Notes under the pieces: model-generated
What the model was told of the DNA's origin: nothing
The model's database searches: none
Seen by the model: only the letters and a program-made list of their open reading frames with translations
Assembly: GCA_964596395.1 (NCBI GenBank)
Contig: CAZQSY010000001.1
Coordinates: 108,091 to 172,090 of the forward strand
Origin: an uncultured Candidatus Saccharibacteria bacterium
Lineage (GTDB): Bacteria; Patescibacteriota; Minisyncoccia; Phycocordibacterales; UBA9973
Length of the DNA: 64,000 nt
Reading direction: 5' to 3'
Shown here: piece by piece, positions 2,976 through 63,672 of the stretch
How the letters are laid out: the number at the start of each line of letters is the position of its first letter
How positions within the stretch are numbered: the first letter of the stretch is position 1
Translations under genes and position numbers: made by a program

Positions 2976-3089
2976 GGGGTTCCGCGAAGTTTGTGTTTTT
3001 TGAGCTGGTCTGGTTGAGCCCACACCTTTTAAAAATTACTGTGTGGGCGACCCGAGGACCCGAGAAAAATACAAACTTCGCGGAACCCC
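2976..3089. repeat. Nested inverted-repeat element, copy A (outer 19-bp perfect IR ggggttccgcgaagtttgt / acaaacttcgcggaacccc enclosing core gagctggtctggttgag-hairpin-cgacccgaggacccgagaaaaat)
   Basis: Outer IR 2976-2994 and 3071-3089 are exact reverse complements; core 3002-3070 has an internal hairpin cccacac...gtgtggg; the same termini recur at 5694-5779 and 21642-21734. Confidence 0.7.
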
Positions 3090-7464: not shown

Positions 7465-7636
7465 GCGCGAAACCCTTTCTTGGCATATTTTTTATAAAGC
7501 AATCTGTCTGGCCAAGCTTGGCCAGCGAACTGCTCGTCACTCAAGAAAAACAATAGCCGGAGTACCGGCTTTGTTTTCTAAGCTCCTGCGCAAGGCTTTC
7601 TAAAAAATACGCCTGCGACCGGGTTTCGCAAACAAA

Positions 7637-8841: not shown

Positions 8842-9009
8842 GAGCCCTATACTAGCAAAAAGGGTAAAATAAGTAAAGATGAAAGGCAAAACCCTTCGCA
8901 GGCGTACTTTTTGGAAGGCCTCGCGCAGGCCGGCGGGCCGAGCAGTTCGCTCCGCAAGCTTGCGGAGATAGATTGCCTTACAAAAAGTATGCCAAGAACA
9001 GGGTTTTGC

Positions 9010-21800: not shown

Positions 21801-22384
21801 TCGTGCGAAGAAAGAGCCGTGCCGCAACGCGGGCACCAGGGCACCACTTTGTAGTCCTTGTATAAAAGTCCCCGTTCGTTTACTTTCTTTACGATGTTCC
21901 AAAGCGATTCAATGTAGTCATTGTGATAAGTAACGTACGGATTCTCCTGGTCAACCCAATAGCCAATACGCTCGGTAAACTTGTTCCAGAATTCCAGATA
22001 CTCCCAAACGCTTTCTTTGCATTGCTGATTAAATTTCGCGATGCCATACTCCTCGATTGCTTTTTTTGAATCAAGCCCGAGCTTTTTCTCAACCTGCAGT
22101 TCCACCGGCAAGCCGTGCGTGTCCCACCCGCCTTTTCGGCGCACATGGCATCCGCGCATGGTCTTGTACCGAGGGATGGCATCTTTGAAAGCGCGAGCTT
22201 CGAGGTGGTGAATACCCGGCTTGCCATTGGCTGTCGGCGGGCCTTCATAAAAAACGAACTCCTTTCTGCCCTCGGTTTGCTTTACCGATTTTTCAAAAAT
22301 TTTATTCTCTTTCCAAAATTCCAAAATCCGTTCTTCACGTATCGTCGCTTCACATTTTTCGATTTTTTTGCTTTCCTCGTTCAT
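18818..22384 (-). CDS. ileS: Isoleucyl-tRNA synthetase with two insertions (31-aa repeat-element-derived segment; about 190-aa histidine phosphatase domain)
   Basis: HIGH-type motif PTANGKPGIHHLEAR, WTTTPWTLPGN (CP1 start), KMSKSLGNIVDP; 1188 aa, oversized because of the insertions. Confidence 0.95.
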   Translation of the reverse strand: MNEESKKIEKCEATIREERILEFWKENKIFEKSVKQTEGRKEFVFYEGPPTANGKPGIHHLEARAFKDAIPRYKTMRGCHVRRKGGWDTHGLPVELQVEKKLGLDSKKAIEEYGIAKFNQQCKESVWEYLEFWNKFTERIGYWVDQENPYVTYHNDYIESLWNIVKKVNERGLLYKDYKVVPWCPRCGTALSSHELAQGYQDVKDLSVYVKFKIIASPRNDFLGPRVGRAESSAKNGLNQTLENHSAAPLYILAWTTTPWTLPGNVALAVGEDIDYVKIKKENEVLILAEKRLQEIQGEYQVLEKLKGKNLIGLEYEPLYPFLQNVISESEKPKLEKAYKVYPADFVTTEDGTGVVHTAVMYGQDDFELGTKIGLPKHHLVGLDGKFLSGTGFLEGRFTRDEETAVEIIKDLAHRGLLLKKEKYEHSYPYCWRCKTALIYYARDSWYIGMSKLRDELIKENEKINWEPAHIREGRFGEWLREIKDWAISRERYWGTPLPVWECEKCHKREVIGSLEELKEKTKKSGNKYFAIRHAQAEANLKGLISNKIESDNDHLTEEGKKQALDSARKLRKEDITLMISSDFLRTKETAEIILKELDLPQDKLVFDKRLREIFTGSFKGRTWREFWGDKTGEKRYFLDTDGSETQRDVKLRVSNFLYDIDKKYKNENILIVTHEGPRRLIVAGALGLNDEETIRELEASIPPVGFSEFTEFPFVPLPHNKDFELDFHRPYIDETEVVCECGGDLKRVKEVMDVWFDSGAMPFAQDHYPFESKKWVEGAGYPADYISEAIDQTRGWFYTLHAVGILMGRGKAYKNVICLGHLLDAQGKKMSKSLGNIVDPWEMIEKYGADTLRLWMYSVNQPGESKNFDEKTVRLLHQQVFGLLYNILAFYELYRDTSVEKNSQPKSGDVLDKWILARMDELTELVTRSLENYRLLEPVRGVRDFIEDLSTWYLRRSRDRMKEGDKEAKQTLYLVLKNLVKLLAPFAPFTAEDIWQKLKNEKEAESVHLAEWPKAGFKFFRFGDKEVLEKMKTVRKIVTLGLERRQYEKIKVRQPLAKIEIWKDSKLDGEYLDLVKDELNVKEVVEGTNIDENILLWTEITPELKAEGDFRELVRALQDMRKDMGLTPKDSITLYIETEKNGEELVKKFEPELLKTVLVSNLKLEKNDGQEVKAGDLAFKVKILQNK
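21642..21734. repeat. Nested inverted-repeat element, copy C, inserted in frame (93 nt) in ileS
   Basis: Perfect 16-bp outer IR gccgcggaatgatttt (21642-21657) / aaaatcattccgcggc (21719-21734); core gagtgtctggttgag ... ggccgacccgaggaccgagaaaat matches the copy-A termini; on the minus strand it encodes SPRNDFLGPRVGRAESSAKNGLNQTLENHSAA. Confidence 0.65.
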
Positions 22385-25902: not shown

Positions 25903-26517
25903 TTACACGGTAATTTTTTCCAAAACTTTCCTACAAGAACAACTGTATCCCAGTTGACAAATCGCTATTTCGTTAACAGATACCCGGATTGGAAATTCAA
26001 TTTTTAGATGCTCCGTATTTCCGTTCCCTAAAGTGATGTGTGGGTAAAAGTTGTCGCCGACTCGAGCATTTCTAAAATTTCTCACGTATTCTATGGAGCC
26101 GTCAGTTACCTCTGGCTCCACAAACATTTCTCGCACCGCGTCTTGACCTAAATTTACAGATTTCATCACTTCATAATGCAGTGCAAATAAACCACCTGTT
26201 TTCTCTACCGTCAAAATTGGAAATTTTAAACTGGTGTCAATTCCTGTTATGTGTACCTCCAGTGGTAAATATTTTTTTACTATCGGTTCAATTTTTTCCT
26301 TGACGGAAAAAATATTGTCTCTTTCGATAGTTCCCATAAGAAGAGAGACGTGAGAAAAATATACCTTATTATCTATAATATAGGGTTTCATATTATTAGT
26401 GCGAATCAAGCTAGCACTTAAGTCACACACAAACGCGCCAATTTTCTCCGGCAAAAATAGAGCTATATCTATGGCAACTTTGGTGCTCATTTTGTTATTG
26501 GCTTTGTATTTTAGCAT
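25903..26517 (-). CDS. 2H-phosphoesterase (LigT/ThpR-like) family protein
   Basis: Two H-x-T/S-x motifs (HVSLL and HITLG) at the spacing typical of 2',5'-RNA ligase-type 2H enzymes. Confidence 0.55.
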   Translation of the reverse strand: MLKYKANNKMSTKVAIDIALFLPEKIGAFVCDLSASLIRTNNMKPYIIDNKVYFSHVSLLMGTIERDNIFSVKEKIEPIVKKYLPLEVHITGIDTSLKFPILTVEKTGGLFALHYEVMKSVNLGQDAVREMFVEPEVTDGSIEYVRNFRNARVGDNFYPHITLGNGNTEHLKIEFPIRVSVNEIAICQLGYSCSCRKVLEKITV

Positions 26518-26550
26518 ATTTCTGACCGATTGTTATGTTTTTCAAATTGG

Positions 26551-26578
26551 GACATTCTCTGCCATGGCAGAATTTGTC
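26551..26578. promoter_or_regulatory. Composite palindrome gacattc-TCTGCCATGGCAGA-atttgtc upstream of PaaX-like regulator gene 1
   Basis: 14-bp perfect palindrome 26559-26572 with partially complementary flanks; lies in the divergent promoter region between the ligT-like gene and 26609..27088. Confidence 0.45.
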
Positions 26579-26608
26579 CTATTGTTGCTTTTTGGCTATA
26601 ATCAAACT

Positions 26609-27088
26609 ATGCCCATCGCAAGCGAAATACTAAAAGAACTGTGGAACACAGAGCTAAAATGCAAAGGAGCACCTGTGAACATTTTTGGCATTCCACGTTT
26701 TGGGAAATACCCTGTCGGGAGCATCCGAAGAACTATAGACCGTTTGAAGGAAAGAGGTGTGTTGGAAAAAGAATTAGGTGGGATTGTACTATCAAGACAC
26801 GGAATAAAATACGCGAGAAAAAAAATTGATTCACTGAAACAGTTTGAAAAACCGAAAGGGATTTCAAAAGAGAGAACTCTGCTTCTGATGTTTGATATAC
26901 CCACGGGAAAGAAAGGAGAAAGGGAGTGGTTGCGGTGGCACTTGAAAAAATTCAATTACACGATGGTTCAGAAAAGCGTCTGGGTTGGGCCATGGCCGTT
27001 ACCGAAAGATTTCAAGGAGTATTTGGCAAAAATAAAGCTGGACAAACACATTAAAATTTTCAAACTGGCCAAATCGTATGTAAAATGA
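26609..27088 (+). CDS. Small PaaX-like regulator (N-terminal wHTH-like region + C-terminal Cas2-fold-like/PaaX_C-like region), paralog 1
   Basis: Start set at MPIASEILKELW by alignment to paralog 34384..34866; shared motifs PVNIFGIPRF, MFDIPTGKKGEREWLRWHLKKFNYTMVQKSVWVGPWPLPKDF; C-terminal pattern resembles the PaaX C-terminal domain. Confidence 0.55.
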   Translation: MPIASEILKELWNTELKCKGAPVNIFGIPRFGKYPVGSIRRTIDRLKERGVLEKELGGIVLSRHGIKYARKKIDSLKQFEKPKGISKERTLLLMFDIPTGKKGEREWLRWHLKKFNYTMVQKSVWVGPWPLPKDFKEYLAKIKLDKHIKIFKLAKSYVK

Positions 27089-31031: not shown

Positions 31032-31625
31032 ATGAAAAAATTTGAAGAAGCAAAATTTGAAATCGGCGAGCTCGCGGGTATTTCGAAGAAAAATATAGAA
31101 GAGCATTTGAAACTTTACTCGGGGTATGTGAAAAATGCCAACTTAATACTGGAGAAAATAGTGGAGCTAGCGCAAGATTCAGAAAAAAACGCTTACGCTT
31201 TGGGGGAAATTCAAAGAAGGTTTGGTTTTGAATACAACGGCATGCGAAACCACGAAGTTTATTTTGATTCTCTTTCCGACGGAGCGCAGTCCCTCGGAGA
31301 AAATAGCGAACTCAAGAAAGCAATCGTAGAAGAGTGGGGCTCGTTTGACGTGTGGCTTGCCCGATTCAAAGCTGTGGCGCTCACGCGCGGCATCGGCTGG
31401 GCCATGCTTTACTACGACAAAAAAGACGGAAGATTGCTTACGACTTGGGTGGATGAACAGCACTTGGGGCAACTCCAGGATTGCGCCCTGATACTGGGAC
31501 TCGACATGTGGGAACACGCATACGTCTATGATTACCCGACCTCGGAGAAGAAAAAATACGTGGAGGCATTTTTTGAAAATCTGAATTGGGAGAGCGCGGA
31601 GAAAAATTTCCTAAATGTAAAATAA
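31032..31625 (+). CDS. Fe/Mn superoxide dismutase-like protein
   Basis: DMWEHAYV (D/H metal ligands), NHEVYF (His ligand), N-terminal helical hairpin with a single His (IEEHLKLY) where HHxKHH is usual. Confidence 0.8.
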   Translation: MKKFEEAKFEIGELAGISKKNIEEHLKLYSGYVKNANLILEKIVELAQDSEKNAYALGEIQRRFGFEYNGMRNHEVYFDSLSDGAQSLGENSELKKAIVEEWGSFDVWLARFKAVALTRGIGWAMLYYDKKDGRLLTTWVDEQHLGQLQDCALILGLDMWEHAYVYDYPTSEKKKYVEAFFENLNWESAEKNFLNVK

Positions 31626-31635
31626 AAAATCGAGA

Positions 31636-31712
31636 AAAGGTTTTTAAGGGGTTTGGCGAGCGACGGCGAGCCAATTTCAGGAATTTTTAAGCTTCAAAAA
31701 TTCCGTACCGAC
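31636..31712. repeat. GC-rich palindromic intergenic module (host form, no nested inserts)
   Basis: ggggtttggcgagcgacggcgagccaatttcaggaatttttaagcttcaaaaattccgtacc; 9-bp stem ggaattttt/aaaaattcc; the same scaffold recurs at 56736-56862 with two inserted palindromes; outer IR atcgagaaaaggttttt / aaaaaccttattctcgat. Confidence 0.5.
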
Positions 31713-31719
31713 AAAAACC

Positions 31720-33246
31720 TTATTCTCGATTTTTTATCTCAAGGAGAAAGCTTTTCGCATTTCCCCCAAAAAGCTTGTAAGCAAACCAAGCGTATACGGC
31801 CATTGTCAGCACTAGAGGAAATTCTGGAATAGAGAGCGAAGCGAAAGGAACTCGCGCGAAAAAATTTACTACGGACATTTCGTAATGAAGTAAGAGATAC
31901 GACATGAAACCGAAAGGAACGGAAGCAAAATACCAAATTAACCCGGCGAATCCGGCAATAAAACCAAAACCCATGGTGAAAGGAATGAGCGGCAAAATCA
32001 AGACGTTGGCCGGCAATGCCACCAGCGAAAGGCTGCCCATTTTGTAAAGTATGAAAGGCAGAACAAAAATATAAACGGCAGTAGTAATAGAGAAAATTTC
32101 CCGCAGGCCGAAATAGGGCGTGACCCACTCAAAATATTTTTCAACTTTCGGAGCAAAAAATATCACCGCGACAGTGGCTAAGAAGGAAAGCTGAAAAGAT
32201 ACGTCAAAACGCAAAATGAAAGGGTTCCAGAGTACCATGACGATGCCTGCCAGAAGAAGCGCCCGGCCGGCATCATAGCCCCTGCCTGAAACTTTCGCGA
32301 AAAGAGAAATTACCGCCATCACCCCCGCTCGCACCGCGGTAGAAGGAGCGCCGGTCATGAGCACGAACAAAAATATGGAAAACATGCCGGCCCCCGCCGC
32401 CCATCCCATAGGCAAAAAAGAGAAAAATTTCATGAACCACTTGGCGACAATCATGATGTTGTAGCCGGAAAGAGCGACAATGTGTATCGTACCTGTTGAG
32501 ACGAGATTCTCCCGAAAAGATTCTTCAAACGAGGCCTTTTCACCTAAAATAAGGCCGGCCATGAGCAGAGATTCTGGTTCTCGAATGGCTTGATTTATTT
32601 TTTCGGAAAATTTTTCTTTGACGGAAAATAAAATTTCTTTCACCTTGTTCCCATCCCCACGCGAAATTATTTCAGCATCCGGATACTTCATCAGGTAAAA
32701 AATCCCGTCCTTGCGCAAGTAATTCACATAATCAAATTCTTTACCTTGGTCGGTTATGAAATTTTCCGGCTTTTTTAAAACTCCTTTTATATCCAATTTA
32801 TCTCCGTACTTAGAATTATTTTCCAGCCCTACTGTAACTAAAATTCTTGTTTTGAAACCTTTTTCTTCGGCTTCCACGATAAATTTCTGATTATTTTCGG
32901 CCACGTTCGGCTCATCGGCAATTTCACCGGTCAAAGAAACTCTCTGGCCTACTTTTGATTCGAAAAACTCCGGCACAGGCCTATCCGCAACGCTAAATCT
33001 CCAAATCCCAAAACAGAAAAGCAGAACAAAAACCGAAATTAAAACCCCTATTTTATTCTTGGAAACAAAAGTAAAAAACAAGAGCAGTGCAAAAGCTAAG
33101 ACCCCAAATAAAATAACAACGTGTAAATTCACAAAAACACCTGCCTCGCCGGCACCTGCCTGTCCGGTAGGCAGGGGCAGGAAAGAGCGCACAAGCACTC
33201 CCAGGATAAAACCCGCGCAAGCCGAGTAAAAAATTTTATCTTGCAT
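31720..33246 (-). CDS. comEC: ComEC/Rec2 competence channel protein (N-terminal OB/DUF4131 + competence domain, no MBL domain)
   Basis: Polytopic membrane protein; HIVALSGYNIMIV competence-domain signature; ends before any MBL motifs. Confidence 0.85.
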   Translation of the reverse strand: MQDKIFYSACAGFILGVLVRSFLPLPTGQAGAGEAGVFVNLHVVILFGVLAFALLLFFTFVSKNKIGVLISVFVLLFCFGIWRFSVADRPVPEFFESKVGQRVSLTGEIADEPNVAENNQKFIVEAEEKGFKTRILVTVGLENNSKYGDKLDIKGVLKKPENFITDQGKEFDYVNYLRKDGIFYLMKYPDAEIISRGDGNKVKEILFSVKEKFSEKINQAIREPESLLMAGLILGEKASFEESFRENLVSTGTIHIVALSGYNIMIVAKWFMKFFSFLPMGWAAGAGMFSIFLFVLMTGAPSTAVRAGVMAVISLFAKVSGRGYDAGRALLLAGIVMVLWNPFILRFDVSFQLSFLATVAVIFFAPKVEKYFEWVTPYFGLREIFSITTAVYIFVLPFILYKMGSLSLVALPANVLILPLIPFTMGFGFIAGFAGLIWYFASVPFGFMSYLLLHYEMSVVNFFARVPFASLSIPEFPLVLTMAVYAWFAYKLFGGNAKSFLLEIKNRE

Positions 33247-34383: not shown

Positions 34384-34866
34384 ATGTCTCTCGCACGAGA
34401 AATTATAAAAGAACTCTTAAAACCTACCCTGAATTATAAAGGTATGCCAGTGAATATATTTGGCATACCGAGATTCAGGAAACATTCCTTTGGTTCACTT
34501 AGAACAACTGTCTGGGAAATGAAAAGAAAAGGATTGATAGAAAAGCGAGGAAGCGGGTGGTATTCCACACCCGCTGGGAAAAAATTCGTGCAGAGGAAAT
34601 ACGAGTCACTCGAACAATTCTCAAATAGCTTTGCGAAAGGCACGCCAAAAAACCTTTTAGTTATGTACGATATACCTGAATATAAAAAAGCAGAAAGAGA
34701 ATGGTTTCGCTGGCATTTGAAAAAATTCGGCTATCTGATGATTCAAAGAAGTGTATGGATTGGTCCTTCTCCTTTGCCGAAAGATTTTTTAGACTACGTG
34801 GAAAAAATAAAACTGAAAAGAAACATAAAAACTTTTAGGCTGGCAAAACCGTATAAGGCAAAATAA
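34384..34866 (+). CDS. Small PaaX-like regulator, paralog 2
   Basis: 160 aa; clear paralog of 26609..27088 (MPVNIFGIPRF, LLVMYDIPEYKKAEREWFRWHLKKFGYLMIQRSVWIGPSPLPKDF). Confidence 0.55.
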   Translation: MSLAREIIKELLKPTLNYKGMPVNIFGIPRFRKHSFGSLRTTVWEMKRKGLIEKRGSGWYSTPAGKKFVQRKYESLEQFSNSFAKGTPKNLLVMYDIPEYKKAEREWFRWHLKKFGYLMIQRSVWIGPSPLPKDFLDYVEKIKLKRNIKTFRLAKPYKAK

Positions 34867-36610: not shown

Positions 36611-36667
36611 AAAAGAATTCTATCACACGCGGCTTGTTTTCTCTTTGGCTGCTGGTATAATCAAGGC

Positions 36668-37021
36668 ATGCAAGAATGCGTTTTCTGTAAAATCGCAAGA
36701 AAAGAAATTCCGGCCGAAGTAATTTATGAGGATGATGATTTTATCGCGTTTTTGGACATAAAGCCGCTCGGGCCCGGACACGCCCAAGTGATACCGAAAA
36801 AGCATTACCGATGGGTCTGGGATGTGCCGAACGCGGGAAAATATTTTGAAGTGGTAAAAAGAATCGCGCTGGCGCAGAAAAAAGTGTTCAAGGCGGACAT
36901 CGCCCGTTCGCAAATTTACGGCGAAGAAATTCCCCACGCCCATATCTGGGTTTGGCCGGAAACAGTGGGAGACGCGACAGACCTGAAAGCGAACGCCAAA
37001 AGAATTACCTCAATACTTTAA
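36668..37021 (+). CDS. HIT-family (histidine triad) nucleotide hydrolase
   Basis: CVFCKI zinc-finger-like start, HIT motif PHAHIWVWP; start set at MQECVFCKI (ORF track 36503); TGGTATAAT extended -10 at about 36651-36659. Confidence 0.8.
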
Positions 37022-45090: not shown

Positions 45091-45165
45091 AGAAAACTAA
45101 AAAAGCATATCTCTAGAAATTCGTACCCTAGAAAAGATATGCTTTTTAGTTTTCTGTTGAGTTAG
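45091..45165 (-). other. Long near-perfect hairpin (about 28-bp arms) between the giant surface protein gene and pilB
   Basis: aacagaaaactaaaaaagcatatctctag ... ctagaaaagatatgctttttagttttctgtt; arms complementary except for a 1-nt indel and 2 mismatches; loop aaattcgtacc. Confidence 0.55.
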
Positions 45166-48100
45166 TTTTCTATAAACACCGGTTTCTTGCCGCCGGTAGA
45201 TACGTACACCCACAATTCGTCGGGGGCCTGGCCGCCTGGGCCGGTGCAGGTGATTGAATATTTCGTGCTGCGCGAAGGCCCCGGGCTGACTAAAACACTT
45301 CCCTCAGTATCGCCGCCGGTCGTAATCGCGCCACCTTCGTAAATAATATTAGAGCAAGACGTGGTGTTGGTAGATGTCCATTCCAGAGTAAACGGCTCGC
45401 CAGAAGATATCGGGTTCTTTGAATCCGCCGAAAGCGAAAGGTTAGCGTTCGGAGAAGCCACTGTATCTGTGCAGATGCTCCCGTTCCAGAAAGTTGCAGA
45501 CGCGCAGTCAGCGAAAGCGGTAGCGCGAGCGAGCTCAATCCCGTCATTGTACAAGAAAAAAGTCCTCGGGCTTGAATCGTATGGAACCGGCAAACCTACG
45601 TTGTTCCCGAAATTTCCGGCCATAACAGTAGTTTTTGCTTCTGGATAGTTTGAGGTTATTGCCGAGTCCCCTGCCGGGTTTATGGTGGTCCAATCAAAGT
45701 GAACATCACAGCTACTGTTGCCCGAAAGTATCTCGCAAGGGCTGTCTAGGGGGGTCAAACTTCCAGTCGGAGCTTCGCCGCAAGCCGGCGCCTGGCAGGA
45801 TTGCGTGGGACTTCCTACACAATCAGCCCCGCCGTTGGCTGGAGCAGGGTTGGTGCATGTGCGTGTCTGCACGCCGGACTCTCCGCACATTGTCGCGCTA
45901 CAGGCGCCCCACTGCGACCATCCGCCGTCCACCGGGTCGCTGGTCACGGTCACATCCACCCATGCGCCGCAGTTATTGTTTTCGTTCGACTCGGTCACGA
46001 CGCCGGTAAAGGTCGGGTCATTGTCGGCGCAGGCGCGAACCGAATATGTGCCTGGAGCGATAAAGGTGTACGAGGGAGAGAAAGTTGTGTTATTTCCTCC
46101 GGCGGAAAGCGCTGGCATCAGGGTTGCGTTCAGCGATTCTATCGTGCCGAAACCGCCGGTACTTGAAGCCACCTGGAAAAAGTTCGGGAACGAAGTCGGG
46201 GTCGCGGCAGTGCCGGAGTTTGAGATGGTAGCCGAGAAAGTTACAGCTTCATTCGCGTTGACTTCTGTCGGCGAAGAACTGGAAGCAGTCAGTTCGGGTA
46301 AGGACGCGCCCGGGGTGGCAAAAGTGGCATCCGGAGAGTAGCCGGTGAGTCCCGCCGAGTTCGTGGCGTAACCTCGGTAGTAGTATACTGTTCCACCCGA
46401 CAAGCCGGTCCTTACGTGGGAATAGGCGACATTTACAGAAATACCGCCTTCGGCGCTGCAGTTTGAAGAAGGATTCGGCGCTGTTCCGAGACACGTGCCG
46501 CGGGCGGTGATAGTCGCCGGGATTCCGGCTGAAGTTACAGTCGCTCCGAGTGTCGCCTTATAGGTAGAACCGTCGAGAGAGATGTCCGACGAAGTGGGGC
46601 TCGCGACGGTCGGCGGGGTATTCCCCGAAGCGGCGAAGGTCGCGCTGAATGTCTGGTTTGAAGTTATGTTTGTGAAGGTGTAAGAAGTCGCGCTGGTAGT
46701 AGTCGGAGTACCGTTTACTATGTGCGAGGCAACTACATATCCGTTGCTTGGAGTGAGAGTAAGAGTAGTTGAATTCGTACCGTAAATCACCGAAGTGGTC
46801 CCCGCCGGAGAGATAGTTCCGTTTAACGCCTGAGTAACGGCGATAGTCGGTTTTGCTCTGCACTGCCCGCTTACCCAATCGCTGCCGGAAGCACACGTCG
46901 CAGTGGCGCTGCTTTGGTCGAGCAACACACCGTTGTTGTACAGATAAAATGTTTTTGTCCCGTCAGATATTTGATAATTAAGGGGCGATGTGTTGTTTCT
47001 AGAATCCGCCACCACTATTTGTGGCGGAGTAGTCACTTGAGAATAACTTGCAGGATTGTTTACGCTCCAGGAAATACTCGAGTTACAGGCGCTGGAACCT
47101 ATCGGAATAGTACAATCGGTAGAGGAGACATTGCCCGACATTTGCCCGGCTATCGCCGAGAAAGAAGCAGTAACCGTACAAGCCGAAGTTACCGGACCCG
47201 TGGTGTAAATACTTCCCGCAAGTGAGCCGCCGCAGCCGGTAACAGTATTTATCTCATAACCGCTGTTCGGAGAAATGGTGAAAGAACCAGTGGAATTGTA
47301 GTTCACATTCCTGGAAGACGGGGTGATGGTCCCGCCGACCCCTCCACTAACTGAAGTGCCGACCGTGTATGAATTTAGAGAGAACGAAGCAGATACGTTG
47401 CACCCCGAAGTAATCGCACCAGTCGTATAAGTCGTACCCGAAAGCGAGCCGTTGCAACCGGAAGCGGAAGCGGTGTAACCGGCAGTCGGGGTAACAGTAA
47501 ATGTTGTGGTAAGGCCATGATTCACTGTCCTAGTTGAAGGAGTAATTGAACCGCCGGCCCCACTACCACTTGAGGTTACCGTGTACGAATTTTGCGAGAA
47601 AGTCGCGCTAACTGTACAGTTCGCGGTAATAGAGTTTGTCGTGTAAATATTTCCGGCAAGAGATCCGCCGCAGGTGCCGCCGACCGAAGCGGTGTAGCCG
47701 GTATTCGGAGTAACGGTGAAGGAAGTGTTGTCGCCCGATGCTACGGTTTGAGCAGTATTTGGAGATATGGAACCACCAGCGCCGGCGCTGGGAGTAACTG
47801 TATAGGTATTAGAAGCCACGGTAATATTCTTCCAGGGACCGCAGTTGTTGCTCTCGTTTGATTCAGTGATGGTGCCAGCGTTTGACGAACTGGTCTTGTC
47901 AGCACAAACGCGGATGGAATACGTGCCAGCCGGGCTGAAAGTAATTGATGGGGAGGTAGCCGTATCCATTCCCCCGGCGGTAACCGCAGGCATGGTACCG
48001 CTTGGCGTTCTGTCGGCGGGTGTCCCGCACCCGCCTCCCGTATTGCATGTCTGGAAAAAATAACTGAACGAAGCGCCGGTCGAAGCATTGCCACCGTTGG

Positions 48101-51100
48101 AAATAACAGCGGTGTAAGTCCTGGCGACACCGGTGGTGGCGGCTGAAGGGCTCGCAAGGCCAGCAGTCAAGTCGGGTAAGGGTTTGTCTTCGGAACAAGA
48201 GGCGCTGCTCCCGCCGTTTGAACCCGCGCAGGTCCATGTCCAGGCGGTTGCTCCGTTCACGTTGCTGGTACTGGTACCCGAAGAACAATTGTAGTGAGCG
48301 GGGGCGCAGGAGCCATTGACCGGAGACACGACGGATGAGAATGAAGCTGTTACGGTACAGTTTGAATTTATTGAACCGGTCGTATAAGTGTAGTTCGGAG
48401 CAGTACCCGAAAGCGAGCCGCTGCAGCCAGAGGCGGAAGCGGTGTAGCCGGAGTTTGAAGTCACGGTGAAGGTAGTGGTAGTACCCGCGTTAACCACTAC
48501 CGAACTCGGGGTTATATTCCCATTCGGAGAACCGTTATCTGTGGCTGTCACGGTATAAGTCACAGCAGTTGTCCCACAAACACTTCCGTTCCAAGTGGTA
48601 CCAGCAGAACAAGAAGTCGTGGCCGTAGCAGAATCCAACTCTTGCCCGTTGTTGTATAGATAGAAAGTTCTTGAGCCGTAGTGTACCGAATATGTCGCCG
48701 AACCAGAGTTTCCCGAGCCCACAGTTATATTTGTCGGAGTGGTTACCGCCGAAGTTGAAACCGGATTGGTCGTACTCCAGCTTATGCTTGAACTACAACT
48801 ACTTTGTCCGGATGGAATCGTGCAATTCGAAGCGCTGATTGTTCCAGACATACCGCCGGCCGAAGCCGCAAACGTTGCCGTCACGCTTTTAGCCGAGTTC
48901 ATGGTGAAACTGCAAGTTCCGGTGCCGGTACACGCGCCCGACCAGCCAGAGAATGTATAACCGGAAGAAGGAGCAGCGGTGAGAGAGACGCTAGTACCGC
49001 TGCTTACGTTTGCAGAACAAGTAGTGCCACAATTTATGCCGTTGCCGGTTACGGTGCCGCTGCCGGATTTAGTTACAGAAAGAATGTATGTTGTCGGACT
49101 AAACGTCGCCGTCACGCTTTTGTTTGCGTTCATAGTGAAACTGCAAGTTCCGGTGCCGGTGCAGGCACCCGACCAGCCAGAGAATGTATAACCAGAAGAA
49201 GGAGTAGCGGCGAGAGAAACGTTTGCTCCAGTTATGATATTAACCGTACAGGGGTAAGAACTGCAACCAGACAGAATGTTGCCAGCAGAACCAGACGCGG
49301 TACCGCTCAGAGTGCCGCTGCCGCTTTTGTTTACCGTAAGCGCGCTAGTTTGAACTGAATTGAAAGTAAACGTCACCGTGCAGTTTGTGGTTATGGCGTT
49401 CGTCGTGTAAGTGGTACCGTTTAATGTTCCCCCACAAGTGCCGCCGACCGAAGCGGTGTAGCCCGAGTTGGGGATAACATTAAAGGAAATAATCCCGCCG
49501 TGCGAAACATAATAATTATCCCCCGAAGAAGACCAAGTAGAAGTCTGTTGAGATACACTCCCATTCGCGCCAGCGGTAACCGTAACACTATGGAAAAAGA
49601 AAGCTATAAGCGAGCAATTTTGGGTGATGGGCTCGGTTGTGTAAATAACTGAACCGCTCCCCAGAACTTCGACCTGGCTACCACACCCTGAAACCGCACC
49701 TAGATAGCCGGAATTCGCCGTTACGGTGAAAGTAGTAGTCTGACCGGATTGCACAGTTCTGAATGAGGGAGTGATAGACCCACCGGAACCATCTACCGAG
49801 GCAGACACAGTATAGCTAGGTGTTGTTTGGCTAAACGTAGCTGAAACGGTACAATTCGCGGTTATCACATTTGTAGTGTAAGTAGTGCCACTTAAAGTTC
49901 CCCCGCAAGTACCACCCACCGAAGATATATATCCAGAATTCGGTGACACGGTGAAAGACATGGTATACCCGTAGGTTATTGATTGGGAAGTGCTCGGAGA
50001 AATTGAACCGCCGGAGCCAGCGCTCGGCGTCACCGTCAAGACCGCTTTGTTGAATGTCGCAGTAACACTCTTGTTTGAATTCATAACGAAACTGCATACA
50101 GAACTCGCTCCAGTGCAAGCGCCCGACCAGCCCGAGAAAGTAGAACCAGTTGAGGGTGTGGCAACCAAATCAATGAGATCATTTGGATAAAAACTCGCGG
50201 AACATGTGGTCCCACAGCTGATACCGCTCGGAGAAGAGGTAATTGTTCCTGAACCAGTACCAGCTTTACTTACGGTCAGAGTGTACGGGGCTAAGCTGAA
50301 CGTCGCCGTCACGCTTTTGTTTGAATTCATGGTGAAATTGCAGGTTCCTGTGCCAGTGCAGGCGCCCGACCAATTCGAGAATACATAGCCCGCAGACGGG
50401 CTCGCGGTGAGGGACACACTCGCACCGCTTGAAACATTAACTGTGCATGGGTATGAAGAGCAGCCGGAGAGAATGTTGCCGGCAGTGCCGGAGGCAGTGC
50501 CGGATATAGTGCCACTGCCGGTCTTGCTGACAGTGAGAGCGTAGTTCTGATAAGAAGTTGTAAAAGAAACATCAGAACCATAGCTTGTGCCCGCTCCGTT
50601 TGTGGCATACGCGCGCACATGATACGTAGTACCCTGAGAAAGACCGGTGATATAACTTATCCATGGACTGCTCGCGCTACTTGTTCCATCGGCAGTTTTG
50701 CCTAGATAAGAAGAAACCGTAGGATTTGAAGAAAGCCCCCACACTATTCCGCTTGCTGAAATGGGTGAGCCATTCACGGATGTGATTTGTCCCCCACTCT
50801 GTGCGGAAGTTGGAGATATGTTTGAAACGTTGCTGGTCGTAACTGTCGGCGCCTCGGCCGGGGTCACAAATGAGGAAGTGGAAGAGTACCCCGTGAGATA
50901 GGCCGAGTTGGTGGCATATCCCTTGAAATAATAAGTTGTGCCCGGATTTAGATTTGTCAAAGAAAGAGAAAAAGGGTTAGTGGAAGAACCAGACAAGCAG
51001 GTGTTTAAACTAGAAGAAGAAGTTCCGTAACAAAAACCTCTGCTGTTTATAGTAGAAGGACTACCGAAATTTGATATGGTGTCAGACAAAGTTACACTTC

Positions 51101-52007
51101 GCGAAGCCAGATTGGAATAAGAAGGGTTGGCGAGTGTGGGAGCGGTGTTGTTCTGCGCGTAGCTTATGCTCACCGTGCAGTTGCCGGTAACCGCACCTGT
51201 GGTATATGTATAGGAAGAACTTTGCGATGAAGTAGGGCTCCCGCTGCATCCCGAAGCCGAAGCGGTATAGCCTGATGCCGGAGCTATGACGAAAGAAGTG
51301 TTAGAACCATGCGTAACATTTTTAGAAACAGAGTTTGAGGTGGAACCGTCTATTGTGCCGTTTGCAGAGTTGTCTGTTGCCGTAACAACGTAAGAGTTCA
51401 GGGCAAACGTCGCCGTCACGCTTTTGGCCGAGTTCATGGTGAAACTGCATGTTCCGGTGCCGGTGCAAGCGCCCGACCAACCAGAGAATGTCGACCCGAA
51501 ACTCGGAGAAGCACTAAGGGTAACGCTGGTACCGCTAGAATAACTTGCGCTGCAGGTGGCCCCGCAGGAGATTCCCGCCGGAGTCGAAGTAATCGTACCT
51601 GCGCCCGTGCCTGCTTTGCCCACCGTTAAAGCATAGCTTGATGCCACAGTTACGGTCACCGACTTAGAGACATCGTACATTTCACCCTGAGCATTTACAC
51701 AATAAAGGGTGTAAGTAGCGGTGGACGAAGGAGAAACACTCTGACTTCCGATGATATGTGTTGTCGCGTCGGGGTAAATGATGCCGGAGAAGCCGCTGCC
51801 TCCGGTGCTGCTTTTATAACACTCCACGGCATCATAAACAATCCAACTTAAAGTGGAAGAGCCGCCGGGCTGTATAGTAGTCGGGGAAGCGGTAAAATCT
51901 ATGCTCGTCGCCGGTCCGACAGCTGAAACAATGTTTTGTTTTAAAGCCGCAAAAAACAAAAACGCGGCTAGAACCGAAGCGAGGGTGAGAAAAATTTTCT
52001 TGAACAT
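45162..52007 (-). CDS. Giant secreted surface protein (2281 aa): InlB-B-repeat (GW-SGAC-TG-C-FTMN-N-SVTATF) modules, Ig-like repeats, one thrombospondin type-1-like module
   Basis: Signal peptide MFKKIFLTLASVLAAFLFFAAL; at least 8 copies of the G(Y/S)(T/V)FSGWSGACTG(T/A)GTCxFTMNSNKSVTATF motif; DGGWSQWGACSATMCGESGVQTRTCTNPAPANGGADC at about 45775-45930; Ser/Thr/Gly-rich; first gene of the pilB-pilC-pilin operon; extended -10 TGTATAAT on the minus strand at about 52077-52090. Confidence 0.85.
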   Translation of the reverse strand: MFKKIFLTLASVLAAFLFFAALKQNIVSAVGPATSIDFTASPTTIQPGGSSTLSWIVYDAVECYKSSTGGSGFSGIIYPDATTHIIGSQSVSPSSTATYTLYCVNAQGEMYDVSKSVTVTVASSYALTVGKAGTGAGTITSTPAGISCGATCSASYSSGTSVTLSASPSFGSTFSGWSGACTGTGTCSFTMNSAKSVTATFALNSYVVTATDNSANGTIDGSTSNSVSKNVTHGSNTSFVIAPASGYTASASGCSGSPTSSQSSSYTYTTGAVTGNCTVSISYAQNNTAPTLANPSYSNLASRSVTLSDTISNFGSPSTINSRGFCYGTSSSSLNTCLSGSSTNPFSLSLTNLNPGTTYYFKGYATNSAYLTGYSSTSSFVTPAEAPTVTTSNVSNISPTSAQSGGQITSVNGSPISASGIVWGLSSNPTVSSYLGKTADGTSSASSPWISYITGLSQGTTYHVRAYATNGAGTSYGSDVSFTTSYQNYALTVSKTGSGTISGTASGTAGNILSGCSSYPCTVNVSSGASVSLTASPSAGYVFSNWSGACTGTGTCNFTMNSNKSVTATFSLAPYTLTVSKAGTGSGTITSSPSGISCGTTCSASFYPNDLIDLVATPSTGSTFSGWSGACTGASSVCSFVMNSNKSVTATFNKAVLTVTPSAGSGGSISPSTSQSITYGYTMSFTVSPNSGYISSVGGTCGGTLSGTTYTTNVITANCTVSATFSQTTPSYTVSASVDGSGGSITPSFRTVQSGQTTTFTVTANSGYLGAVSGCGSQVEVLGSGSVIYTTEPITQNCSLIAFFFHSVTVTAGANGSVSQQTSTWSSSGDNYYVSHGGIISFNVIPNSGYTASVGGTCGGTLNGTTYTTNAITTNCTVTFTFNSVQTSALTVNKSGSGTLSGTASGSAGNILSGCSSYPCTVNIITGANVSLAATPSSGYTFSGWSGACTGTGTCSFTMNANKSVTATFSPTTYILSVTKSGSGTVTGNGINCGTTCSANVSSGTSVSLTAAPSSGYTFSGWSGACTGTGTCSFTMNSAKSVTATFAASAGGMSGTISASNCTIPSGQSSCSSSISWSTTNPVSTSAVTTPTNITVGSGNSGSATYSVHYGSRTFYLYNNGQELDSATATTSCSAGTTWNGSVCGTTAVTYTVTATDNGSPNGNITPSSVVVNAGTTTTFTVTSNSGYTASASGCSGSLSGTAPNYTYTTGSINSNCTVTASFSSVVSPVNGSCAPAHYNCSSGTSTSNVNGATAWTWTCAGSNGGSSASCSEDKPLPDLTAGLASPSAATTGVARTYTAVISNGGNASTGASFSYFFQTCNTGGGCGTPADRTPSGTMPAVTAGGMDTATSPSITFSPAGTYSIRVCADKTSSSNAGTITESNESNNCGPWKNITVASNTYTVTPSAGAGGSISPNTAQTVASGDNTSFTVTPNTGYTASVGGTCGGSLAGNIYTTNSITANCTVSATFSQNSYTVTSSGSGAGGSITPSTRTVNHGLTTTFTVTPTAGYTASASGCNGSLSGTTYTTGAITSGCNVSASFSLNSYTVGTSVSGGVGGTITPSSRNVNYNSTGSFTISPNSGYEINTVTGCGGSLAGSIYTTGPVTSACTVTASFSAIAGQMSGNVSSTDCTIPIGSSACNSSISWSVNNPASYSQVTTPPQIVVADSRNNTSPLNYQISDGTKTFYLYNNGVLLDQSSATATCASGSDWVSGQCRAKPTIAVTQALNGTISPAGTTSVIYGTNSTTLTLTPSNGYVVASHIVNGTPTTTSATSYTFTNITSNQTFSATFAASGNTPPTVASPTSSDISLDGSTYKATLGATVTSAGIPATITARGTCLGTAPNPSSNCSAEGGISVNVAYSHVRTGLSGGTVYYYRGYATNSAGLTGYSPDATFATPGASLPELTASSSSPTEVNANEAVTFSATISNSGTAATPTSFPNFFQVASSTGGFGTIESLNATLMPALSAGGNNTTFSPSYTFIAPGTYSVRACADNDPTFTGVVTESNENNNCGAWVDVTVTSDPVDGGWSQWGACSATMCGESGVQTRTCTNPAPANGGADCVGSPTQSCQAPACGEAPTGSLTPLDSPCEILSGNSSCDVHFDWTTINPAGDSAITSNYPEAKTTVMAGNFGNNVGLPVPYDSSPRTFFLYNDGIELARATAFADCASATFWNGSICTDTVASPNANLSLSADSKNPISSGEPFTLEWTSTNTTSCSNIIYEGGAITTGGDTEGSVLVSPGPSRSTKYSITCTGPGGQAPDELWVYVSTGGKKPVFIEN

Positions 52008-55499: not shown

Positions 55500-55580
55500 T
55501 GTTCTCTGAAGTTAAATGGTAAAATTATTAGGTCTTCAAAGTAAGGCAAAATTTATCATTTAACTAAAAAAATAATTGTC

Positions 55581-56384
55581 ATGAAAAAATATTTAGGTTT
55601 GTTTTTGGGAGGCGCGCTTCTTCTAACTGGAGCCGTAGCCCTAGCAGAATCAGAAAACTCCGGCTCTGGTTCGCTTAATGCAGGTATGGGGCTCCGCCTC
55701 GGCGTGCCGGTCGAGGTGAAAGCGCGGCAGGACGCCATTAAAGCCAAAATTGAAGAGATGCGGCAGGAGCGCCAAGAAATGATGGCCGAGCTTGGCGAAA
55801 AAAGAGAAGAGAACAAGAAAGAGCTTTTGGAAATGCGGGAAGAAGTGAAAGCCGAACGCGAAGCTATAAAAGCTGAACTCGAAACAGATCGCGAAGCGGT
55901 AAAGGCAAAGTTCGAGGCCCTGAAGGAAAAGGTAAAGACTGAAAGAGACGCGGCCAAAGCGAAAATTTTAGAGGTGCGGCTCTCTGGCCGCGAGAAGGCC
56001 CTGCAGATTTTTGATTTGGTGGTAGAAAAACTCGGCGCTTTGAAAGACAGAGTAAATGCGCATATAGAAAAACTTGATGCGAAAGGAGTCGATGTTTCAG
56101 CCGCCGAGGAATTCGTGGCCGTCGCAGAAGTGAAGCTGGATGAAGCAAAGGTGAAAATAACCGAAGTGAACACACTCTTGGCCGATTCAGAGGAAGAACT
56201 ATCGGTCGAAGAGAAAACAAAACTCAGAACATTGCGTACCGAAGCGCAGACGCTCGTGCGCGAAGCGCATCAGGCGCTGAAGGATGCGATTAAATCACTA
56301 CGCGAGAGCGTACGGGTAAAGATAGAAGCCCAGGCAAAAGTTGAGGCCGAAAACGAGACAGAAACCGAAAGCGAAAGCGAATAG
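55581..56384 (+). CDS. Secreted Lys/Glu-rich coiled-coil protein
   Basis: Signal peptide MKKYLGLFLGGALLLTGAVALA, then heptad-like KE-rich sequence ending ETETESESE; the antisense ORF 55556..56173 is a codon-mirror artefact. Confidence 0.55.
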   Translation: MKKYLGLFLGGALLLTGAVALAESENSGSGSLNAGMGLRLGVPVEVKARQDAIKAKIEEMRQERQEMMAELGEKREENKKELLEMREEVKAEREAIKAELETDREAVKAKFEALKEKVKTERDAAKAKILEVRLSGREKALQIFDLVVEKLGALKDRVNAHIEKLDAKGVDVSAAEEFVAVAEVKLDEAKVKITEVNTLLADSEEELSVEEKTKLRTLRTEAQTLVREAHQALKDAIKSLRESVRVKIEAQAKVEAENETETESESE

Positions 56385-56424
56385 GTACAGGGTAAACTTT
56401 TATAAAATCTAAAAATAAAAAAAC

Positions 56425-56655
56425 ATGGAACCAGAAAAAAAATCCAACGGCGCGCTTATCGGGGTGATAGTCATAATCCTCATCCTCGTGCTCGGCGGCA
56501 TATATATATGGCAGTCCAAGGTGGCCAAGGCGCCAAGCGACACTCTCACCGAGGAACCCACGACCGAGGACTCAAACGAGCTTCAGAACCTGGAACAGGA
56601 ACTCAACACCACCGATGTTGAAATCGGGGCCAGCGTAATAGAGAGCGTGCAGTAA
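56425..56655 (+). CDS. Small single-pass membrane protein
   Basis: 76 aa, TM helix LIGVIVIILILVLGGIYIW, acidic C-terminal tail; followed by a strong terminator. Confidence 0.4.
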   Translation: MEPEKKSNGALIGVIVIILILVLGGIYIWQSKVAKAPSDTLTEEPTTEDSNELQNLEQELNTTDVEIGASVIESVQ

Positions 56656-56670
56656 AAAATACCAGAATAC

Positions 56671-56703
56671 AAAATCCCCCGCTTAAGGCGGGGGATTTTG
56701 TAT
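56671..56703 (+). terminator. Rho-independent terminator aaatcccccgc-ttaag-gcgggggattt + U-run
   Basis: 11-bp perfect stem, 5-nt loop, then tgtattt. Confidence 0.7.
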
Positions 56704-56735
56704 TTAGACGAAACTCGTTGAGGCATAGCTTAAAA

Positions 56736-56862
56736 AGGGGGTTTGCCGAGCCCTGCCTGCCGGCAGGCAGGGACGGCGAGGCAACTTCAGGAATTTTTAA
56801 GCCTGCCCGCAATGCTTTCAGCATAGCTGATGCAGGCGGGCTTCAAAAATTCCGTACCCTTT
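56736..56862. repeat. Composite GC-rich palindromic module: the 31636-31712 scaffold carrying two nested palindromic inserts
   Basis: gggggtttgccgagc-[ccctgcctgccggcaggcaggg]-acggcgaggcaacttcaggaatttttaagc-[ctgcccgcaatgctttcagcatagctgatgcaggcggg]-cttcaaaaattccgtacc; insert 1 recurs at 62413-62434, insert 2 at 63463-63500. Confidence 0.5.
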
Positions 56863-56936
56863 TTAAGCTATGCCGATGAAGAGTTTCGTAGATTAAGATT
56901 TTTGACAAAAAACAGTGATAAATATAGTATGGGCTT

Positions 56937-62323: not shown

Positions 62324-62556
62324 AAAATTTAAATTTTAATGGCTCAAATGGCAGGATTTGAGCCGTTGGGTCTTATGTTTGACAACTTTTTGACAAAATA
62401 GTCAAAGTGCCTGCCTACCGGCAGGCAGGTTCGCTTCTATTGCGTTAAAAAACCCTTGTTATATAATGTATAAGCACTTTTAAAAGTAACTTGGTCGACA
62501 AGAATCCCGTTAGGGGTCAAACTAACGGAAAAATTATAAGCTTGATTTTAAGTTCT

Positions 62557-63453: not shown

Positions 63454-63474
63454 AAAAAAATCCTGCCCGCAATG

Positions 63475-63672
63475 CTAGGCAAAGCGCAGCAGGCGGGGAA
63501 AAATCTTTCTGAAAAAATTCTGCCGGTTGTGAAAGCGGATTTTTTTAAGCAAGAGCTTGTGGTCTCTCGCTTCCCTCTTGTACTCTTCCCCGCGCAAGAT
63601 TTTGAAGTCAATTATTCTGTTAATCCTATTGATTTCTTTTTCTATGGTTTGTAAATATTGTTTTTGCGACAT
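63475..63672 (-). CDS. Small basic protein co-transcribed upstream of lexA from an SOS-box promoter
   Basis: 66 aa from Met at 63672 (MSQKQYLQTIEKEINRINRIIDFKILRGEEYKREARDHKLLLKKIRFHNRQNFFRKIFPRLLRFA); the ATG is 7 nt after the -10; ORF track lists 63475..63708. Confidence 0.45.
   Translation of the reverse strand: MSQKQYLQTIEKEINRINRIIDFKILRGEEYKREARDHKLLLKKIRFHNRQNFFRKIFPRLLRFA

Follow-up and report, generated by a model that had tools for sequence, protein, structure and literature searches.

The window, by which we mean the whole 64-kb stretch of contig CAZQSY010000001.1 analyzed here, carries a GC-rich palindromic element at 56722-56874, flanked on one side by the terminator hairpin (56666-56704) of the gene upstream and on the other by a promoter-like site of tig (56902-56930). 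The element is composed of a long-hairpin repeat, which we refer to as scaffold A, and two short palindromes, PAL20 and PAL39, which sit in the loops of its two inner hairpins, P2 and P3. A second, uninterrupted copy of scaffold A lies between the convergent SOD and ComEC genes. The features of these two loci are the following.

56722-56874, plus strand: composite element, scaffold A copy 2 (outer stem and core) with two nested palindromes, defined by its arms and its fold.
56752-56771, no strand assigned: PAL20, a perfect 20-nt palindrome (CCTGCCTGCCGGCAGGCAGG) nested in the P2 loop.
56802-56840, plus strand: PAL39, a 39-nt variant of the PAL36 family, nested in the P3 loop at AAG^CTT.
31622-31737, plus strand: scaffold A copy 1, uninterrupted, with 24-nt outer arms and a core at 31646-31712.

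The core of copy 1, GGGGTTTGGCGAGCGACGGCGAGCCAATTTCAGGAATTTTTAAGCTTCAAAAATTCCGTACC, is enclosed by a 24-bp stem (31622-31645 with 31714-31737) and reads, by parts, GGGGTTTGGCGAG CGAC GGCGAGCCAA TTTCA GGAATTTTT AAGCTTC AAAAATTCC GTACC. The core of copy 2 (56740-56860) is enclosed by a perfect outer stem of 18 bp (56722-56739 with 56857-56874), the arms of which differ in sequence from those of copy 1. The two cores are colinear except at exactly two points: PAL20 sits between the GAGC and GACG of P2, and PAL39, an imperfect palindrome with the sequence CCTGCCCGCAATGCTTTCAGCATAGCTGATGCAGGCGGG, splits the AAGCTTC of the P3 loop. Both inserts can be delimited with a junction ambiguity of at most 1 nt. 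The stem of P2 has undergone a compensatory change between the copies (TTGGC/GCCAA in copy 1 vs. TTGCC/GGCAA in copy 2), and both loci fold far better than shuffled sequences, with z-scores of -6.76 for copy 1 and -9.25 for the composite (-94.6 kcal/mol). The initial annotation, which had described the scaffold of 31636-31712 as reappearing at 56736-56862 with two palindromic inserts, is thus correct to within a few bases.

The H+-pyrophosphatase gene and tig are separated by two open reading frames (ORFs) without a Pfam match, 55581-56384 and 56425-56655. In the relative L245, only a 165-nt spacer that contains another hairpin repeat is present at this place, and the window segment with the two ORFs (55500-56660) may be a small inserted island adjoining the composite.

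A pattern search for arms of the form CCYGCCYGC…GCRGGCRGG identifies seven small palindromes in the window. Outside the composite, the following are present.

3780-3815, plus strand: PAL36-like palindrome, in-frame in the FtsK linker, with the DNA sequence CCCGCCCGCCATGCT…GCGGGCGGG and the peptide PARHASQGDAGG.
10590-10625, minus strand: PAL36, in-frame in the MetRS gene, with the peptide PARNATHSVAGG, identified by the pattern search and the ORF frame.
33136-33177, minus strand: 42-nt in-frame insert at the ComEC N-terminus, with the peptide PLPTGQAGAGEAGV, composed of a PAL20-like unit and a partial second unit.
62410-62429, no strand assigned: solitary PAL20 variant (CCTGCCTACCGGCAGGCAGG, one mismatch) between rny and the hup promoter region.
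63462-63497, plus strand: solitary PAL36 adjoining the lexA start, the arms of which match those of the nested PAL39.

The last two are recurrences of the nested inserts that had been noticed before. The copy ahead of hup is present, with its one mismatch, at the coordinates given here rather than at 62413-62434, and the copy by lexA is as described, its 15-nt left arm and 9-nt right arm being identical to those of the nested PAL39 and its tip different.

Comparison with relatives supports the insertion of these palindromes into preexisting sequence. Protein homologs and synteny place the host in the Candidate Phyla Radiation (CPR), near metagenome-assembled genomes (MAGs) labeled Paceibacterota or Nomurabacteria; the label "Saccharibacteria" of some deposited relatives should be treated with caution given that those relatives are syntenic with the window at 87–91% amino-acid identity. 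The ComEC ortholog of the syntenic contig L102 has RSFL|FVNL and that of the window RSFL-PLPTGQAGAGEAGV-FVNL, and at the DNA level this site is a clean 42-nt pair of filled (window) and empty (L102) states. The MetRS insert consists of exactly the 12 residues encoded by the palindrome, and most of 120 homologs (477–481 aa) are without it. In another syntenic relative, L087, the rny-hup spacer has no PAL20 and the lexA spacer no PAL36; these spacers cannot be aligned base for base with the window and are weaker evidence than the ComEC site. For FtsK, a tblastn comparison with the syntenic contig L002 leaves the linker unaligned.

PAL36/39 and PAL20 are found far beyond the window. A search for CCTGCCCGCAATGCT-N(6-24)-GCAGGCGGG recovers PAL36/39 from 12 loci in viral sequences and from at least 120 in metagenomes, the latter with at least 126 copies; among 126 listed, 87 are 36 nt and 20 are 39 nt in length, and 113 have a length divisible by three. 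Among the metagenome matches listed, the exact MetRS 36-mer occurs 24 times and the exact nested 39-mer 13 times, both in unrelated contigs, and the GC content of the carrying contigs ranges from 31% to 65%. A high-GC contig encodes an ArgG that is 77–78% identical to proteins of Kiritimatiellae and Lentisphaerales MAGs, so that PAL36 is not confined to CPR. One viral contig set represents a bona fide phage, with head-closure and virion proteins and three intergenic PAL36 copies, and the INPHARED phages contain no real match to PAL36. Every PAL36 copy has the same arm asymmetry, with one T-G and one C-A opposition, and these shared mismatches argue for common descent of the copies rather than convergence. 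The tip is a small covarying stem (at pair 16/26, TA 20, AT 11, and GC 2). Exact PAL20 is found at 35 loci in viral contigs, a single one of which may have as many as 6 copies. One of these copies (contig L276, ~2284-2303) occupies the variable loop of a phage tRNA-Met, a 92-nt tRNA with an extra arm that ARAGORN calls both with and without PAL20; D-loop insertions suspected in two other tRNAs (L240 and L283) were not confirmed by ARAGORN, and only the variable-loop case stands. PAL20-like and PAL36 palindromes occur together in several contigs, and one PAL contig also contains scaffold A.

Some PAL36 copies are themselves elaborated. Three units lie in direct tandem, in-frame, in L191 (~2560-2666), and L190 and L245 have a different small palindrome in place of the tip; nesting or tip exchange thus occurs within PAL as well. 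Three ORFs of PAL36-bearing viral contigs (L120, L127, and L129) have Mtd_N, the domain found at the N-terminus of the major tropism determinant, which is the target of a diversity-generating retroelement in Bordetella phage; no reverse transcriptase is seen in the stretches of these contigs examined.

The resemblances could in principle be chance matches among GC-rich low-complexity palindromes, which are common as terminators, or an artifact of assembly. An independent Logan assembly of run SRR15237813 contains contigs that are 100% identical to the window. One of these (L287) covers the composite from its left side through the nested PAL20 and ends at 56776, a contig resumes at 56841, directly after PAL39, and another stops at 31670, inside copy 1; breaks at these repeats are the de Bruijn graph behavior expected for multicopy sequence. 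The segment 56777-56840, which contains the nested PAL39, is covered by the window assembly only, together with the exact match to the 39-mer found elsewhere. Chance and artifact are nevertheless effectively refuted: shuffles predict 0.00 PAL20 matches with up to three mismatches in the window, exact 36-mers and 39-mers recur dozens of times, the same asymmetric mismatches are present in every copy, and the independent assembly confirms the PAL20 nest and both flanks. The copies therefore align better than GC-rich sequence would by chance.

Scaffold A is also multicopy. The 17-mer TTCAGGAATTTTTAAGC, searched against genomes chosen at one per species, identifies at least 116 loci, 17 of which, among those listed, have the complete core; one 17-mer match, in L028, is a chance occurrence inside a HIT gene. 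A looser search finds 20 copies in contigs of related CPR assemblies, none of which (0/20) has an insert in the P2 or P3 loop: the P3 loop is an uninterrupted AAGCTTC or AAGCTTA, and the P2 loop is short. Two to three copies per MAG are present in CAZUCZ01, MFTY01, and CAYOLW01. The hairpin is ~95–115 nt in length, and its location differs between syntenic relatives. L102 is syntenic with 28.9–36.8 kb of the window, at up to 87% amino-acid identity; its SOD/ComEC junction has no spacer, so the scaffold A site is empty. Conversely, a copy of scaffold A separates recJ from HIT in L102, and the corresponding spacer of the window (36611-36668, 58 nt) is empty. A third site is occupied in L110. Scaffold A also enters genes: one MAG has it in-frame inside fmt, with the peptide RRGLASDGEPTSGIFKLQKFRTE, and another has it in-frame in a 382-aa ORF. 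In an alignment of 120 Fmt homologs (P0121-P0240), one site is occupied in most sequences by the scaffold A peptide or by a diverged form of it and is vacant in ~20%. The segment that most Paceibacteria Fmt proteins have there is 25–30 residues long and looks like scaffold A or something diverged from it, for example LRTLAQADEPSRAIFQQENMRGEQ.

An alignment of the 17 complete copies reveals a nearly invariant core and outer arms that are unrelated in sequence yet still pair. Paired cells amount to 91.7%, compared with 79.7% in shuffles, and none of 500 shuffles reaches the observed values; 15 pairs have changes on both sides, and slid-partner controls score lower. All 13 outer-stem pairs are variable and 12 of the 13 have changed on both sides, and the otherwise invariant P3 has undergone compensatory change in two copies, those of L082 and L251. 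The conserved G-U pairs can form on the given strand only.

This pattern is what would be expected if the modules were functional structured RNAs, such as small RNAs or hairpins involved in mRNA stability, processing, or regulation, with nesting as modular RNA elaboration, and the covariation at the PAL36 tip, the bias of PAL toward the sense strand (below), and the hairpins found at one Fmt site and one MetRS site in many lineages would fit as well. However, covariation is equally expected if mobility needs a hairpin. Rfam 15 gives no match at gathering score in the window, and at permissive thresholds the two scaffold loci give only noise-level hairpins of the miRNA type. Presence varies between syntenic relatives in both directions, most MetRS and ~20% of Fmt homologs have nothing at the site, and the same sequence is found in ORFs of essential genes, phage intergenic DNA, a tRNA loop, and spacers close to promoters and terminators. 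We therefore consider a functional RNA unlikely, although it is the most plausible of the alternatives. The initial annotation had offered RNA or protein-binding modules used combinatorially as one explanation; the covarying stems and the strand bias agree with it, whereas the varying presence in relatives and the occurrence in unrelated genes, in phages, and in a tRNA speak against it. A single-copy housekeeping noncoding RNA (SRP RNA, 6S RNA, Y RNA, 5S rRNA, or a hammerhead) is rejected for scaffold A because Rfam is empty, copies are in-frame in ORFs, and the occupied sites vary from one syntenic relative to the next. It behaves as a mobile long-hairpin repeat rather than a housekeeping RNA gene.

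The palindromes are not confined to intergenic DNA, as had first been thought. Three of the seven in the window are in-frame within genes (FtsK, MetRS, and ComEC), and elsewhere PAL36/39 lies within long ORFs in 45 of 129 nonredundant copies among the matches listed (~35%). A single frame and orientation (frame +0), reading P-A-R-N-A…A-G-G, is used by 36 of these 45, and the host proteins include GrpE, CysRS, GatB, and ribosomal protein S9, in the N-terminal tail of which the element is present in four contigs with diverged flanks. Repeat peptides of the "ARND/LAMT" type may be common in the annotations of uncultured bacteria. These data bear on the possibility that intragenic hairpins are intron-like, with the outer stem joining the flanks and the element excised from the RNA, so that it need not be translated. 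Long closing stems surround conserved cores, CPR bacteria have many unexplained insertions in rRNA genes, and the window contains a gene of the 2H-phosphoesterase/LigT-like type. However, every intragenic copy examined leaves the frame open and is divisible by three in length (the 93-nt family B repeat of IleRS described below, scaffold A in fmt, PAL36, PAL39, and the 42-nt ComEC insert), and the single frame of 80% of intragenic PAL copies is expected under translation, not excision. We regard excision as very unlikely.

The proposal that insertions target hairpin loops is supported in part. Inverted flanks of at least 8 nt, which place the element inside another hairpin, are found for 6.8% of copies and 0.8% of permuted controls, an enrichment of ~8-fold; the majority of copies lie outside hairpins, so a preexisting loop is favored and not obligatory, let alone invariable. 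Direct repeats of at least 7 nt anywhere in the flanks are present in 19.7% of copies compared with 4.2% of controls. The target base preference is weak, with A at -1 in 52% of copies and an A-rich +2/+3. The top strand of PAL is co-oriented with the neighboring genes at 60 of 91 loci (p = 0.003).

Some sites appear to be used repeatedly, given that the GC-rich hairpin in one MetRS loop varies with the relative: L291 has a PAL36 variant there, and L289 and L290 have palindromes unrelated to it. This surface loop (TLGW-P…-ENFEKYW) has at least 10 insert types across Paceibacteria (P0001-P0120), and those inspected as DNA (L289, L290, L291, and L002) are GC-rich hairpins of unrelated sequence; it looks like a reused hot spot. 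A DUF559 gene (Vsr-like endonuclease fold) lies between MetRS and TatD in L289, L290, and L291 and is found neither in the window nor in L002.

The near-invariance of PAL across lineages and its frame bias might alternatively reflect DNA-level host signals (uptake sequences, sites for nucleoid or repair proteins, or terminators) spread by biased uptake and recombination. The uptake sequences of Haemophilus (USS) and Neisseria (DUS) form inverted pairs and have preferred reading frames inside genes, a bias similar to that of PAL, and the window encodes ComEC together with an ATPase and platform proteins of the type IV pilus/type II secretion type. The copies are, however, clean insertions of 20–42 nt relative to orthologs and not motifs built by point mutation, a length of 36–39 nt far exceeds that of known uptake signals, and copies are found in phages and in a distant phylum. 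As to terminators, a scan calls the hairpin at 56666-56704 terminator-like but neither the composite nor its inserts, no T-tract follows the nested or intragenic palindromes, and the intragenic copies, given their position, cannot act as terminators. We view host signals as improbable, clearly more so than a functional RNA.

We therefore favor, at a probability of roughly 70%, the interpretation that 56722-56874 consists of three non-autonomous palindromic repeats that came together by DNA-level insertion of one into another. The repeats are multicopy, identical sequence is found in unrelated contexts, sites are filled in one relative and empty in another, copies reside in-frame, and the elements are nested. 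We posit that PAL20 entered the P2 loop and PAL39 the P3 loop of scaffold A, a long hairpin that would combine a fast-evolving, compensated outer stem with a conserved core containing P2 and P3, and that all three modules are horizontally widespread, apparently selfish DNA. Copies would persist where harm is small, as in terminator-promoter gaps, hairpin loops, a tRNA variable loop, disordered protein tails, and surface loops, and sites in proteins would be tolerated if the length is divisible by three and the one hydrophilic frame is used. Movement is predicted to depend on a trans-acting enzyme encoded outside the window, which most likely recognizes the folded single-stranded hairpin, given that conserved unpaired bases and mismatches in a covarying hairpin resemble substrates of the HUH/Y1 or attC type. 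By analogy, a single-strand recombinase of the IS200/IS605, RAYT (REP-associated tyrosine transposase), or integron attC type would be the most likely kind of mechanism, and hairpin loops may be favored as targets because they are single-stranded and tolerant.

Several observations weigh against this interpretation. Neither the ~30 window ORFs nor the 70 ORFs from phage contigs rich in PAL that were scanned include a transposase or HUH/Y1 gene; the phage ORFs show only phage structural proteins and Mtd_N. Conserved terminal inverted repeats are absent, and abutting direct repeats of at least 7 nt, although above controls, are present in only 7 of 132 PAL36 and 3 of 41 PAL20 copies, with a length of 7–14 nt. 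Mobility is deduced from comparison rather than from a transposition event observed directly, and copy counts for the host genome cover the 64-kb window. Selection for function could account for the near-invariance of the 36-mer across distant lineages, and it could also account for the stem covariation, the coding-strand bias, and the reoccupied MetRS and Fmt sites. Functional RNAs or DNA signals are accordingly the main rival, kept alive by covariation, strand bias, and site reuse; the uneven presence of copies among relatives and the range of their contexts speak against them.

We are more cautious in speculating that PAL20, PAL36/39, and perhaps scaffold A and the two further long-hairpin families described below represent an undescribed class of ultra-small (20–39 nt) structured mobile elements, nearly identical in CPR, bacteria of the PVC (Planctomycetes-Verrucomicrobia-Chlamydiae) group, and phages. 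Such elements might be spread by phages and inserted by an activity in trans that places folded single-stranded hairpins into exposed loops, such as those of other hairpins and the variable loops of tRNAs, and, in one orientation, into coding DNA, with reusable hot spots in essential genes, such as a loop in MetRS, a linker in Fmt, and the N-terminus of S9. We consider this broader proposal possible, with the odds against it.

If the repeats are selfish, the extremely reduced genomes of CPR still carry several selfish repeat families, even in aminoacyl-tRNA synthetases, FtsK, Fmt, and S9, and a nearly unchanged 36-nt sequence in distant bacteria and phages would imply frequent horizontal spread and a mobilizing activity yet to be named. 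The elements would enlarge and diversify protein loops and break short-read assemblies, as at the ends of the Logan contigs, which could make gene calls and annotation in metagenomes misleading, and the nesting in loops would constitute a natural experiment on the choice of single-stranded hairpins as insertion targets.

Two further families of long hairpins are present in the window.

2976-3089: family B, just upstream of ftsK.
21642-21734, minus strand: family B, in-frame in IleRS (ORF 18818-22384), where 93 nt provide 31 extra residues.
7482-7613 (plus strand) and 8901-8993 (minus strand): family C, an inverted pair bracketing the S18-SSB-S6 genes.

Family B has the form GTCTGGTTGAG-hairpin-CGACCCGAGGACC inside 17–25-nt arms. 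The inner hairpin of family C is compensated (GGCCAAGCTTGGCC vs. CCGCAAGCTTGCGG). Both copies are missing from the syntenic L002, and two further copies are present in the metagenome locus L218.

The window has several other features of note. The IleRS encoded at 18818-22384 (minus strand) has an internal histidine-phosphatase domain (His_Phos_1), an unusual insertion for an aminoacyl-tRNA synthetase that orthologs in L002 and L003 also have. Paralogs with a PaaX_M/Cas2-like domain are encoded at 26399-27088 and 34384-34866 (both plus strand) and have a 171-nt repeat in common (26909-27079 and 34684-34854); a homolog adjoins IleRS in relatives, and no CRISPR array or cas1 was seen. The cumulative GC skew has its minimum at ~44–46 kb, with genes mostly on the minus strand to the left and mostly on the plus strand to the right, which suggests a replication origin nearby. 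A 2281-aa ORF (45162-52007) has internal repeats at spacings of 231, 1107, and 1197 nt.

Among known systems, the closest analogs are the Rickettsia palindromic elements (RPEs) and the repetitive extragenic palindromic (REP) sequences. RPEs comprise several families of ~100–150-bp palindromes in a reduced genome, are found in-frame and translated in unrelated housekeeping genes, and have no known associated transposase (PMC10969869). Scaffold A and families B and C fit this description, a comparison that is by description and not by sequence: they are palindromes of about that size in multiple families, each present twice in the window, and reside in-frame with the ORF intact, as do family B in IleRS and scaffold A in Fmt and the 382-aa ORF, and also PAL in MetRS, FtsK, and ComEC. 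In contrast to RPEs, the host is a Paceibacteria-like CPR bacterium, and the PAL elements are 4–7 times shorter, are nearly identical in distant lineages and phages, and are nested in one another's loops.

REP sequences are imperfect GC-rich palindromes of 20–40 nt that are present in many copies and recognized as folded single-stranded hairpins; they are not known to have terminal inverted repeats or target duplications. PAL20, PAL36, and PAL39 share the size and architecture of REP/REPIN elements, including conserved mismatches, an internal loop, and a high copy number. REPs, however, are extragenic, species-specific, and associated with a single RAYT gene, whereas PAL is intragenic in about a third of its copies, is nearly identical across phyla and in phages, and has no 5' GTAG motif; the ORFs scanned, from the window and from phage contigs rich in PAL, include no RAYT (Y1 transposase) gene.

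[quoted passage not shown] The repeats described here are likewise short, non-autonomous, polymorphic between relatives, and in some cases in-frame. MITEs, however, are defined by terminal inverted repeats that are conserved, target-site duplications of fixed length, and an insertion sequence (IS) related to them, whereas scaffold A has variable ends and a conserved center, the conserved arms of PAL make up nearly the whole element, abutting duplications of PAL are rare and variable in length, and no parent IS is evident among the window ORFs. The initial description of a MITE-like system of nesting repeats thus captured their multiple copies, varying presence in syntenic relatives, and unrelated contexts, although they are not MITEs by structure.

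The GC clusters and double-hairpin elements of fungal mitochondria are very short GC-rich palindromes that invade AT-richer DNA, genes, and each other. They resemble PAL in being short, GC-rich, and invasive but are organellar and eukaryotic, and nothing indicates that they are related to it. The attC sites of integrons and the ends of IS200/IS605 elements offer a plausible analogy, in that they too are imperfect hairpins in which unpaired bases set strand and register; in contrast to these systems, no integrase, cassette array, or TnpA/TnpB is present nearby, and copies of PAL and scaffold A are dispersed singly. Literature searches returned no paper with the PAL sequence, a link between RPEs and CPR, or palindromic insertions in Parcubacteria genes. 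The repeats thus belong to a known kind, that of selfish palindromic repeats such as RPEs, REPs, and MITEs; they differ from these in the length of the small elements, only 20–39 nt, their near-identity across distant lineages and phages, their in-frame residence in essential genes, and their nesting in loops.

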